The position numbers and the translations under genes are program-made. The notes beneath the pieces are model-generated. The model was given only the letters and a program-made list of their open reading frames with translations. It made no database searches and was not told the origin of the DNA. A stretch of 64,000 bases of DNA from the NCBI GenBank assembly GCA_049840735.1, contig JASGJN010000022.1:224001-288000 (forward strand). The letters are read 5' to 3'. This document shows positions 51,699-55,373 of the stretch, in pieces. The stretch's first letter is position 1; each line of letters opens with the position of its first letter. Source of the DNA: Anaeromyxobacter sp. (lineage in GTDB: Bacteria; Myxococcota; Myxococcia; Myxococcales; Anaeromyxobacteraceae).

Positions 51699-51936
51699 GC
51701 TCGACCCGCGATTCCGTATTGTCGGCTCCCGCGTAGTTCCGCGGTCCACCGCCCGATCCTGCTCGGTCTGATTCCCCAGCCCACCGCCGGCGCTGGTGGC
51801 CCAGCGCGGTGATCGGCTGACCGGAAACTTCCCCGCCACCGCACTTTGGGTGACCCTGCCGCCTCGCGCCGGGCATGGGGTCCGGCCCAGACAAGAAGAT
51901 GGCCCGCCACCGTTCGCGCGGTGCGGGCCGTGGCTG

Positions 51937-52556
51937 GTGCAAGTTCGGCTCACGACCGGGCTCACCAGCGAGGAGTACGTTAAGCAGGAGGCGTGGCGCT
52001 TCGCAAGGTTGGAGCGCTGCCCGCTGCACCCCGAGGGTGGCTGCGGGTTCGCGGGGCACGGGTCATACACCCGGGTCTCGCCCCCGGGCTGCCGGATTGC
52101 ACGAAACCGCTGCCCCACGGCGAGGGTGACGTTCAGCCTCCTCCCGGACTTCCTCTGCGCCAGGCTCCCCGGGACCCTGACAGAGGTCGAGGCGGCGGTG
52201 GCCACCGCCGAGACCGCGACCCGTGAGGCGGCCAGCGAGGCGCTACGGCCCGACATCGATCTGCCGGGCGCGGTGCGGTGGGTGCGGCGTCGTGTCCGGC
52301 TGGTCCACGCCGGCACTGGCCGCGGTGATCGGCCTCCTGCCCGGACTCCTTGCTGGCCGCGAGCCCACCGTCACTTCGATCCGCTCGGCCCTGGGGACCG
52401 AGGCGGCAGTGGTGCGTCTGCGTGGGGTTGGCCGCGGATCACCTGGCCACGCTGCCCCCGCCGCTCGGTTTCGGCCCCCGGCCTGCCCGGCGGCGTCCCA
52501 GGGCCACCACGATCGAACACGACCCGGGGCCGGACCCGCCAGCCGGGGCGCGGTAG
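51937..52556 (+). pseudogene. DUF6431-like Cys/His-rich protein, frameshifted in this assembly
   Basis: CPLH..GC.FAGHGSYTR...RCP...TFSLLPDFL; continues through frame changes to PPPLGFGP..AGAR*. Confidence 0.65.
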
Positions 52557-52602
52557 CTCCTCCGGCCGCCCCAATCCAGGGGCGTTGCCAAGGAGACTGA
52601 CC

Positions 52603-53901
52603 GTGAACGACGACGCGAAGAAGAAGTCCGACGAGGTCGCCCTGTTCCGCTTCGGGGTGATCGGGGACCTCGTCCACCTGCCGCCCGGGACCAAGGGCCT
52701 CAGCGCACGCCTGCACGAGAAGGCCGAGATCGACTACCGCATCCCAGGGAGCGCCCGCGGGCGCGTCGCGGCCGAGACCATCCGCGACTGGCTCAAGGCG
52801 TACCGCAAGACCGGGCTCGACCGGGCTGCGGCCCAAGGTGCGCGGCGACCACGGCCAGTCCCGGGCGCTGCCGCGCGAGGTCTCCGACCTGCTCCTCGCC
52901 ACCAAGGAAGAGAACGCCGAGCTGTCCGTCCAGCTCGTCATCCGGGAGGCGCTGGCCACGGGCAAGGTGCCAGAGAGCGTGGTCCTGGCCCCGAGCACGG
53001 TTCACCGCCTACTCTCCCGCGCCGGACTCATGAAGCGGCCCAAGGACGCGCCCGGCGGCAAGGACCACCGGCCGGCTTCAACTTTCGAGAAGGGCCGGCG
53101 ACCTCTGGATGAGCGATGTCATGCACGGACCCGCCGTATGGGTCGAAGGGCGCAAGCGCAGGACCTACCTCATCGCCTTCATCGACGACGCGACCCCGGG
53201 TGATCCCGTACGCCGCCCTTCGCGCTCTCCGAGAACACCGCCGCCTACCTTCCGGTGCTCAAGGGAGGCGGTGCTCCGCCGCGGTGCCCCCCGCCGGCTC
53301 TTCGTCGACAAACGGCGCCGCCTTCCGCTCGCACCAGCTCGCGCTCGTCTGCGCCAAGCTGGGCGTGACCCTCATCCACGCCCGCGCCTACCATCCCGAG
53401 GCCAAGGGCAAGGATGGAGCGCTGGTTCCGGACCGTGCGGATGCAGCTCCTGCCGCTCCTCCAGTCCGCGGACCTCCAGGGCCTCGACGCCCTGAACCGT
53501 CGCCACTGGACCTGGGTGGAGGGCGAGTATCCACCGTACCCCGCACCGCGGCCTGGACGGCACCACGCCGCTCGACCGCTGGGCGGCGCTGGCCGACGGA
53601 GGTCCGCTACCTGGGCGCGGACATCGACGATCTCTTCCTCCAGGAGTGAGAAGCGCAAAGGTGGCCCGCGACCGGACCGTCAGCCTCGGACGGCGACGTC
53701 TACGAGGTGGACGCCGCGCTCGTCGGCGAGACCGTCACGCTCCGCTTCGACTCCGCCCGCCCCGGCCGGCCGCTCCAGGTGTGGGTGAACGGCGAGCGGA
53801 CCGGCGACGCGAAGCTCGTCGACGTCCACGCCAACTGCTTCGTGAAGCGCGACCAGCCCAAGGGCCTGCGCCTCGCCGACCTCGACGAGAAGGAGGACTG
53901 A
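52603..53901 (+). pseudogene. DDE transposase (rve core, Mu transposase C-terminal domain), multiple frameshifts
   Basis: AAGGAG RBS; ALFRFGVI, WMSDVMHG, IAFIDDAT, FVD/NGAAF, KG/KMERWFRTV, YEVDAALVGETVTLRFD across frames. Confidence 0.88.
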
Positions 53902-53903
53902 CC

Positions 53904-54714
53904 GTGTACCGCAAGCACTTCGGCCTCGGGCCGCCACCCCTTCGAGAAGGGCCTCGCTCCCGAGGATCTCTTCGCCTCCGCCGCAGCCAAGGAGCTCGAG
54001 GCGCGCCTTCGCCACCTCCTCGATCATGCGCGGCATCGGCCTCGTCACCGGCGAGCCCGGCTCCGGCAAGACCACCATCTGGCCGCAAGGTCGCCACCTC
54101 GCTCCACTCCGGCCTCCTACCGCGTCCTCTACGTGCCGCTCTCCACCGGCAACGTGACCGACATGTACAAGTCCATCGCCTGGGAGCTGGGCCTTGCCCA
54201 CCGAGCGCAGCCGCGCCGCGCTCTACAAGGTGATCAGGGGCGAGGTGACCCGGCTCTGCACCGAGACCAAGGTGCGCCCCGTCCTCATCGTCGACGAGGT
54301 CCCAGCACCTCCGCAGTGAGGTGCTCGAGGACCTCCGGCTGCTCACCAACTACGAGATGGACTCGAAGAACCGGCTCTGCCTGCTCCTCGTCGGCGCAGG
54401 CCAGAGACTGCGTCGCCGGGTGGGCATGGCCGTGGCACGAAGCCCTCTCCCCAGCGCATCGTCGTGCGCCACCACGTCGGCGGGCTCGGCCGCGATGAGC
54501 TCCCCGCCTACCTCGGCCACCTCCTCCGCCTGGCCGGTACCGAGCTGCCGATCTTCGAGCCGCCCGCGCTGGAGGCGATCCACCATGCGACCAGCGGCGC
54601 TGCCGCGCAAGGTGAACCTTCTCGCTCATCATGCCCTCATCGCCGCCGCCCTGGCCAAGGCCCAGGCCGTCACCGCCGAGCACGTCCAGGCGGCACTCCC
54701 GGAGAACCACATGA
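53904..54714 (+). pseudogene. ExeA/TnsC-like AAA ATPase, multiple frameshifts
   Basis: MYRKHFGL..PF, Walker A GEPGSGKTT, Walker B LIVDE, LEDLRLLTNYEMDS, PRKVN. Confidence 0.88.
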
Positions 54715-55108
54715 CCGCCTGCGGCGTCTGGCTCGGCCGGCGCGGCCTCGTCTGCGGTCCTCGTCGATGGCTGCGGCCGCGTCTGCTTCGCCGCCACAAT
54801 CCCTCGCACGCACGCCGGGCGCTGGGGTCTCGCCCAGCGCCTTGCCGCCGTCGGCGCCGACCTAGTCATCGACGAGGCGCATCTCCCGGCCGACCCCATC
54901 GCCTTTGCCGCCCGCCGCGCCGGCGTCCGCGTCTGGGTTGGCTGGCCCACCACTCGTCGGCTCGCTGCGAGCCGTCTCGGCCGCCGCTCGCGGTCCGCCG
55001 AAGACCTCTGCCGCACTGCTCGCGCGGCTCCCGTCCGTGCCCTGGCTACGCGCCCAACTGCGCCGCCTCAATCCCGCGGACGACCCTCGTCAGATTCAGT
55101 TGCTGTAA
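54711..55108 (+). pseudogene. Small IS110/RuvC-like protein with degenerate active site and C-terminal QIQLL; two frameshifts
   Basis: Reconstructed MTACGVWLGRRGLVAVLVDGCGRV...DLVIDEAH...AGVRVWVAGP...KTSAALLARL...RQIQLL*. Confidence 0.55.
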
Positions 55109-55282
55109 CCCCAGGCCCCGGCCGCCTACGGCGTCCGGGGCTTCTCCGTCTCCACCACCTTCCAGCTTCGACCACCGGAGGGCGCATTGTGAGAACGGCT
55201 CAATCTGAGCCGGGGGCGGAGAGCGACGAGCGGGTGGTGGGGAAGCGTGGGAGACAACAACGGCAAGCCGCTATCCCGCTCG

Positions 55283-55325
55283 CCCTTCGACTCCGCCGCT
55301 TCGCGGCTACGCTCAGGGCGAACGG
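55283..55325 (+). repeat. REP-like element with internal hairpin
   Basis: CCCTTCGACTCC-GCCGCTTCGCGGC-TACGCTCAGGGCGAACGG. Confidence 0.85.
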
Positions 55326-55346
55326 ACGGCGAACCGGGGCCTTAGA

Positions 55347-55373
55347 TGGAGCGGGAAAAGGGATTTGAACCCT
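55347..55373 (-). other. 3' fragment of tRNA-Gly (att-like remnant)
   Basis: Minus strand AGGGTTCAAATCCCTTTTCCCGCTCCA: T-arm, 3' acceptor strand, discriminator U and CCA typical of tRNA-Gly. Confidence 0.75.

Follow-up and report, generated by a model that had tools for sequence, protein, structure and literature searches.

The 64,000-nucleotide stretch of Anaeromyxobacter sp. DNA analysed here (contig JASGJN010000022.1, positions 224,001 to 288,000 of the forward strand; hereafter the window) carries at 51720-55259 a transposon whose fourth gene, open reading frame 4 (ORF4), is, judged by sequence profile and predicted fold, a stand-alone IS110-type RuvC domain in which the catalytic DEDD residues are no longer present. 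Its last five residues match the motif by which proteins bind the beta clamp, the sliding clamp of the host replisome. The interpretation that we favour, tentatively and with confidence somewhat short of even, is that of a compact and autonomous DDE transposon built on a core of three genes, with a fourth slot whose occupant can be exchanged; ORF4 would here dock on the clamp and steer transposition to replication forks or newly arriving replicons. The features concerned are given below in window coordinates, followed by a second, related element of the same genome.

51720-55259, + strand: whole element, 3540 bp, TGT...ACA ends; a second copy aligns with it end to end
51720-51845, + strand: left end, repeated [TC]CACC-core sites (putative transposase sites), including a 13-mer at 51828-51840
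51901-51929, + strand: conserved stem-loop between a purine-rich Shine-Dalgarno (SD)-like stretch and the ORF1 start codon
51937-52556, + strand: ORF1, DUF6431-like Cys/His zinc ribbon plus helical domain resembling a helix-turn-helix (HTH); interrupted here
52603-53901, + strand: DDE transposase, HTH + rve + Mu-transpos_C, nearest NCBIfam model IS481; interrupted here
53904-54714, + strand: ExeA-like AAA+ ATPase (AAA_22), helper of the MuB/TnsC/IstB type; interrupted here
54711-55108, + strand: ORF4, predicted stand-alone and catalytically dead IS110-type RuvC domain, 132 residues, start overlapping the ATPase stop
55091-55105, + strand: QIQLL, C-terminal pentapeptide of ORF4, beta-clamp-binding-motif match in the translation
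55180-55259, - strand: right end, repeated core sites, including the inverted 13-mer at 55233-55245
L203 (G000:C14:97824-101509) and L204 (C17:52361-56047): second four-gene element, intact and recently duplicated, with the same ORF4 type

A search of the host's own genome gave a second copy of the element (copy 2, G000:C22:20218-23737, minus strand), which matches exactly window positions 51720-55259 at 89.7% identity, with no further similarity between the two copies outside either end. Because this alignment stops at both ends, the boundaries are correct, and the TGT (51720) and ACA (55259) termini named in a preliminary description of the window are in the sequence and shared by copy 2. 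Together with the relatives, which measure 3.1-3.65 kb and have the same end signature, copy 2 confirms the bounded, mobile DDE and AAA+ element with two extra genes that the description had proposed. Relatives are encoded in 456 stretches of species-representative genomes and in at least 596 of metagenomes, 80 of each set being retained for analysis, and their hosts are Myxococcota, Acidobacteriota, Pseudomonadota, Actinomycetota and others. Annotated plasmids of Firmicutes and betaproteobacteria show the identical gene order; plasmid records gave no match to the RuvC-type ORF4, and no relatives were found in the viral contigs searched. A search of public sequencing runs returned 13 small-share holders, with no RNA holder among the matches listed.

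The four genes are present in one orientation, as had been described, and the window copies of all four are interrupted by single-base insertions. Compared with five intact relatives, private inserted bases in the coding span number 32 in the window copy and 11 in copy 2, and neither copy has a private deletion; those of the window copy include the ones at about 52315 and 52428 in ORF1 and at about 54751 and 54938 in ORF4. Near relatives' contigs from four public runs were without the 11 window insertions that the matches listed cover. Considering that all 43 private indels of the two copies are insertions, read errors are favoured over decay, and the window frameshifts look like uncorrected read errors; natural decay is disfavoured both by this bias and by the absence of the listed insertions from near relatives. 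Given these interruptions, intact relatives, chiefly L024 (77% DNA identity), were used as reference for the protein analyses.

ORF4 and the slot behind the ATPase gene

The ORF4 profile matched the solved IS110 recombinases IS621 (E 8.9e-6) and ISCro4 (E 2e-5). The predicted ORF4 model has a predicted local distance difference test (pLDDT) score of 93.8, falling to 66-70 in the C-terminal tail, and resembles IS621 in Foldseek (E 5e-7, template modelling score 0.73); among 48,161 chains VIA placed ISCro4 first (Z 14.0, root-mean-square deviation 5.4, 125 aligned) and RuvC second (Z 10.9), and the Atlas lead to IS110 RuvC scored 0.89. The profile search gave 228 clusters at 50% identity, and all hits among the matches listed are short stand-alone proteins of 83-231 residues. 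The alignment used below has 111 rows: 11 loci, and 100 of the near-full-length hits, which numbered 109 before nine were dropped for ends that were off-frame or aberrant. Catalytic columns were mapped with the HMMER alignment of the ORF4 profile to IS621, using the IS621 residue numbers. The column of IS621 D11 holds tryptophan in 93 of the 111 rows and the third catalytic column proline in 75; across the four DEDD columns, 101 rows have no acidic residue and 10 have one, never more.

The fourth gene is not a fixed component of the element: relatives have it exchanged or lack it. An ORF is coupled to the ATPase stop in 108 of the 141 loci with a complete ATPase gene, its start lying within -3 to +2 of that stop in nearly all cases; another 23 loci have the right end and no coupled ORF by our rule (in 17 of them the space is under 200 bp), and 10 were left unscored. 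The 108 slot ORFs form five families of 38, 32, 26, 5 and 3 members plus four singletons, and no homology was detected among family A (that of the window), families B/E and family D when their three profiles were compared. On a transposase plus ATPase tree of 94 rows (quick method, midpoint root) the slot needs 14 changes, with family A spread across the tree and ORF4 absent in five separate places. Family C (L064:5970-6293, L069 and L070) consists of proteins of 108-109 residues from Acidobacteriota and relatives with no Pfam match. One further locus (L242, G202:C2:83000-89000) has TGT...ACA-type ends, an ExeA-like remnant and a helicase-like ATPase gene recognised by eye, which is followed by a decayed fragment of ORF4.

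The ORF4 cassette reaches beyond the family of the window element. The profile found it in 27 of 401 Myxococcota genomes, and in 25 of 30 loci selected by ORF4 alone, some of them repeating earlier loci, it follows immediately on an ATPase gene, four lineages being represented, IS21 among them: 12 behind the window-type ATPase, 8 behind a second ExeA type, 2 behind a third type and 3 behind IstB, the other five being fragments, deleted elements or contig ends. The second ExeA-type ATPase is 34% identical to that of the window type. Its element in the window's own genome is 3686 bp long with TGT...ACA ends, in two copies 99.8% identical, one of which has a 5-bp duplication; relative to L024, its ORF4 is 48% identical and its transposase and ATPase 34-36%. 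A partial left end of this second type lies at C17:363271-363601 and a degenerate relative on C13. Two of the IstB-linked cases are confirmed, with transposases at 229 and 233 bits against the IS21 cut-off of 160 and IstB proteins that pass Pfam and score 193 and 189 against the NCBIfam cut-off of 200. The IS21 elements L238 and L239 (3.7-3.9 kb, perfect 20-bp terminal repeats) encode an unannotated Cys-rich protein different from ORF1, then IstA, IstB and a dead-RuvC ORF4. IS21-borne ORF4s are 61-71% identical to those of the window clade, above that clade's own median of 38%, and group together with them (SH-aLRT 94), a sequence relationship which indicates that ORF4 moved between unrelated transposons.

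Tail motifs and the role of the slot gene

The terminal motif is strongly maintained in ORF4: at its positions 1, 2, 4 and 5 the 111 rows have Q in 107, L in 77, L in 100 and L or F in 80, respectively, and before the nine off-frame rows were dropped the clamp motif was present in 84 of 109. In the predicted model the domain is followed by a low-confidence linker and then by the motif. One Firmicute ORF4 ends in DPI. The consensus for beta-clamp binding is QLSL[FL] (excerpts of PMC3971601), and excerpts of PMC3971601, PMC11406308 and PMC11417375 give TnsE, Tn3 TnpA and IS66 TnpB as clamp binders among transposition proteins. Most proteins of slot family B (around 70 residues) have QxDLF and, after it, an acidic tail with PF at its end, and in families D and E the terminus is acidic-PF or acidic-F; the C-terminus of the host single-stranded DNA-binding protein (SSB) is DDIPF, and this tail is the docking site of repair and restart proteins (excerpts of PMC7913777).

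Either a clamp motif within the last 22 residues or a PF end was found in 45 of 59 slot representatives (70% clusters, broken ones included). The same patterns occur in 30 of 3412 host coding-like ORF ends (0.9%), in none of 129 ATPases and in none of 99 transposases, and in 1000 tail shuffles a mean of 1.9 and at most 8 slot representatives matched. In a distant clade examined after the patterns were set, with transposases 39-40% identical (two compared), all three slot ORFs end in PF. The transposase C-terminus is acidic plus F or L in four of five lineages lacking ORF4 and in one of 98 elements with ORF4, a pattern that is no more than suggestive, as four of these lineages belong to one clade. 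The predicted complex between the ORF4 alignment and the beta clamp of the host lineage scored 0.51, and one control 0.49.

On the docking interpretation, the transposase would bind the repeated end sites, and the AAA+ ATPase would capture the target DNA to which the transposase joins the 3' ends, in the manner of MuA/MuB and IstA/IstB. Movement is probably replicative or of a copy type, given the absence of TnsA and of a resolvase and the many copies without a duplication. ORF4, presumably translated in step with the ATPase, would dock on the host clamp by its last five residues, and its dead RuvC fold, which engages branched DNA in RuvC and IS110, would probably hold branched or gapped DNA. 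ATPase and transposase would thereby be steered to forks or newly arriving replicons, following the logic of TnsE with an unrelated protein. Other slot occupants may do a related job by clamp motif, SSB-tail mimicry or both, so that the slot would be helpful and not essential. Clamp binding and targeting by ORF4 are inferred. The suggestion that the two accessory genes replace TniQ and TnsE functions survives in its TnsE-like half, which fits ORF4 through the clamp-binding motif, and is not supported in its TniQ-like half, ORF1 having no TniQ match in Pfam.

Several points weigh against this interpretation. The tail patterns were drawn up after the sequences had been seen, and the relatives are not independent of each other. 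Slot family C, with its three loci, has neither tail motif. The fourth gene is optional, because a three-gene form is present as eight near-identical copies in one genome (six of the seven complete ones with 5-6 bp duplications). ORF4 sits behind both ExeA-type and IstB-type ATPases, and a specific ATPase contact is hard to picture. The present data give no indication of a route by which ORF4 would recruit the transpososome, and the clamp motif is as compatible with repair or interference as with targeting.

This last ambiguity leads to the main rival, on balance unlikely and still the most serious one, namely that the slot gene acts after strand transfer and recruits polymerases carried by the clamp, or partners of SSB (PriA, RecG, gap-repair enzymes), for copying or gap repair of the intermediate. 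The same tail evidence supports it, and SSB-tail mimics would recruit restart and repair proteins instead of marking a target (excerpts of PMC7913777). The helicase-like gene behind the ExeA-like remnant of L242, a single locus judged by eye, fits such a role, and the absence of TnsA or a resolvase makes replication of the intermediate likely. However, a clamp motif on a DNA-binding fold is the design of TnsE, and three-gene forms still finish insertions with duplications.

Two further accounts are improbable, and we give them equally little weight. The first regards the ORF4 products as decoys or inhibitors that titrate the clamp or SSB partners, slowing forks or raising damage responses, or has the dead RuvC domain poison IS110-type competitors. 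In its favour, some of these proteins are very small (around 70 residues) with the tail as their best-conserved feature, they are exchanged rapidly between lineages, as is typical of conflict genes, and the dead domain retains the IS110 fold. Nevertheless, the strict position and translational coupling behind the ATPase gene suggest stoichiometric work with the transposition proteins, and the dead domain is without the coiled-coil and the RNA-binding portions that IS110 subunits use for assembly. The second regards the gene as a passenger, with tails that derive from shared ancestry or from a benefit to the host. Its dispensability, with at least five losses, and the one slot family without a motif agree with this; against it, nearly all occurrences of ORF4 (25 of 30 loci) follow ATPase genes of transposons, the motif class is common to unrelated families, and ordinary cargo is not kept at one coupled position across IS481-like and IS21 elements.

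Core genes, ends and insertion sites

ORF1 lies upstream of the transposase gene in every locus with sufficient sequence on that side (76 of 76 and 46 of 46). Its predicted model (pLDDT 91) shows a beta-ribbon with conserved Cys/His residues followed by helices. Searches of Pfam and NCBIfam with single sequences gave nothing significant for ORF1 or for any ORF4 family, and the ORF1 fold had no Foldseek match at E 0.001; the best VIA matches (Z 4.4) were common HTH-like arrangements, with TniQ not listed. The DUF6431-like character given to it earlier stands at the profile level (probability 95%, E 2e-8 against a Geobacillus DUF6431 protein), but the likeness is distant, the Pfam model (PF20020) matching one of 58 ORF1 relatives (E 8.5e-4). 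The nearest named Atlas clusters are DUF6431 (score 0.98; clusters with 29-57% DUF6431 members).

These results bear on a further reading, the least probable of those considered, in which ORF1 is a TniQ-like target selector and ORF4 is secondary. ORF1 is invariant and combines a zinc-binding-like Cys/His pattern with a helical domain, and TniQ likewise has a zinc finger among helical domains. Yet the TniQ Pfam model matched none of the 58 ORF1 members at E up to 0.1, and none of the ORF4 families; the nearest clusters are DUF6431, a canonical relative of which weakly matches the zinc ribbon of ISL3 transposases, and the insertion flanks have no fixed site and a weak five-base bias. The TniQ-like role is for these reasons not upheld, and we infer that ORF1 is an end-binding or regulatory zinc-ribbon/HTH protein.

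Of 89 non-redundant relatives, 84 have the stem-loop before ORF1, in which some of the changes are compensatory, and in 65 of the 84 it lies 7-8 nt from the start codon. An SD-like purine stretch precedes it in 66 of 84, and an SD directly before the ORF1 start occurs in one of 89. The structure may act as a palindromic operator, or it may span a ribosome-binding site that is split in two.

The three catalytic motifs of the transposase are found in 63, 61 and 59 of 63 relatives. The L024 transposase scores best of all models against NCBIfam IS481, at 199.8 bits with a cut-off of 224. The proposal that the element is not a classical two-gene IS21 is borne out by the score of 55.2 bits against the IS21 model (NF033546; cut-off 160) and by an ATPase that does not match IstB (PF01695); the latter matches TniB weakly (E 0.009). 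In L024 (3026-3209) and L023 (812-995) the transposase frame is open for about 60 codons upstream, overlapping the end of ORF1. In Streptomyces relatives (L122:3753-3983) a small gene lies between the transposase and ATPase genes, and the first gene encodes a plain HTH protein.

End profiles of the relatives have TGT...ACA termini with imperfect inverted repeats, and the [TC]CACC core is conserved at offsets of about 25 and 50 on the left and 15 and 40 on the right (79 left and 89 right non-redundant ends). The 13-mer noted near both ends does occur at 51828 (+) and 55245 (-) and nowhere else in the window, but copy 2 does not keep it exactly, and as a binding site it was dropped in favour of the shorter core.

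Copy 2 is flanked by a 7-bp target duplication. The window copy has none, as described, also when the ends are shifted by up to 3 bp. Among 18 long-flank loci (both ends, at least 900 bp of flank) the duplication is 5 bp in seven and 6 bp in three, six of these ten coming from one genome, and absent in eight; 46 short-flank contigs, in which collapsed repeats mix flanks, gave 5 bp in four, 7 bp in one and none in 41. Since eight of the 18 long-flank copies are likewise without a duplication, later deletion or recombination is plausible for the window copy. No empty target site for it was found in 92 family genomes. Insertion flanks (85 left, 94 right) have no fixed or dedicated attachment site; they show a weak five-base C-C-G-R-G bias, similar to the target consensus of Mu and nowhere above 0.23 bits per position. 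No circle or head-to-tail end junctions were found in the fetched loci, nor among the joints listed for relatives' contigs from four public runs.

As to the surroundings, copy 2 is inserted in an IS66-like element (TnpB_IS66 match; L002:884-1560 and beyond 5020). The window copy is adjoined on the right by a REP-like palindromic repeat of about 50 bp (55279-55330) with at least 53 further matches in the genome, some in tandem arrays. Beyond it, at 55347-55372, lies a 26-bp copy of a tRNA-Gly 3' end (24/26 to tRNA-Gly(TCC) on C17), an attachment-site-like remnant with ACGGCAA repeats around it at 55260 and 55434; ARAGORN found no tRNA in the window.

Relation to known elements and implications

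Classical IS481 elements have a single gene. The window element resembles the IS481 family in its TGT...ACA ends, its short duplications (mostly 6 bp in IS481) and its best-scoring transposase model, and a Geobacillus relative, in which the genes follow the same order, scores above the cut-off and carries the IS481 annotation; the window element differs in a transposase below the curated cut-off, a conserved three-gene core with 3-4 genes in all, the ATPase and the Mu-type C-terminal domain. A named relative may be Tn6049 of Cupriavidus metallidurans CH34 and plasmid pHS87a, which according to excerpts of the reports has 3.5 kb, many copies, a GspA/ExeA-like ATPase and TGT ends, and whose transposition module "could not be categorized" (PMC2864759, PMC4739549, PMC6210171). 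The comparison is by description only; the reported end sequence and 4-bp repeats differ, so that Tn6049 may be a sister lineage. The excerpts of the same three papers give no role for its accessory genes.

IS21 is similar in pairing a DDE transposase with an AAA+ helper (IstA/IstB), in its variable short duplications and, for some genuine members, in having ORF4 together with a Cys-rich gene in first place; it is set apart by the transposase score and by IstB, where the window element has an AAA_22/ExeA-type ATPase. With the TnsE pathway of Tn7, with Mu (MuA/MuB) and with Tn552/Tn5053 the element shares an apparently TnsB/MuA-like transposase with Mu-transpos_C, an ATPase helper, TGT/ACA ends with repeated sites and mostly 5-bp duplications, and TnsE binds the clamp. 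In contrast, it has no TnsA, no detectable TniQ/TnsD, no resolvase and no cargo, TniQ/TnsD occurring throughout the Tn7 branch, and with no fixed attachment site either the label 'Tn7-like' does not hold in the strict sense. TnsE has a PriB-like fold, unlike the RuvC fold of ORF4. The IS110 bridge recombinases (IS621, ISCro4) have the same N-terminal RuvC domain fold with detectable sequence likeness, whereas ORF4 is the RuvC domain only, with DEDD lost, no coiled-coil or Tnp domain, and a clamp-motif end; a bridge RNA would not be expected for it.

The architecture can be seen in RefSeq annotation, and transposition proteins that bind the clamp were already known; what appears to be new is the dead IS110 RuvC/clamp cassette in the slot. 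A literature search, including excerpts of PMC10045372 and PMC10293859 and with ISfinder, TnCentral, most subscription papers and supplements outside its scope, found no such cassette and no SSB-tail mimics in transposons.

A wider proposal, rather doubtful at present, is that DDE and AAA+ transposons of several families, including IS21, share a mobile 'replisome adaptor' slot behind the ATPase gene, in which the domesticated, dead IS110 RuvC domain with its clamp motif would form a second, TnsE-independent class of structure-specific target selectors and the other occupants would be minimal SSB-tail or clamp mimics. If true, IS21-type elements would thereby have their first target selectors and the bridge-recombinase domain a fate not seen before, a stand-alone, disarmed form of which would be reused by a different kind of element. 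What the slot offers is a 132-residue candidate adaptor, spread among four transposon lineages and open to a one-pentapeptide knock-out, besides unrelated alternatives of 70-100 residues with clamp or SSB-type tails; as a tool, a 3.5-kb broad-host element with a modular targeting slot may be of interest. It makes testable how ATPase-dependent transposons without TniQ find targets or complete their intermediates, and what share of this would be done through the host replisome.

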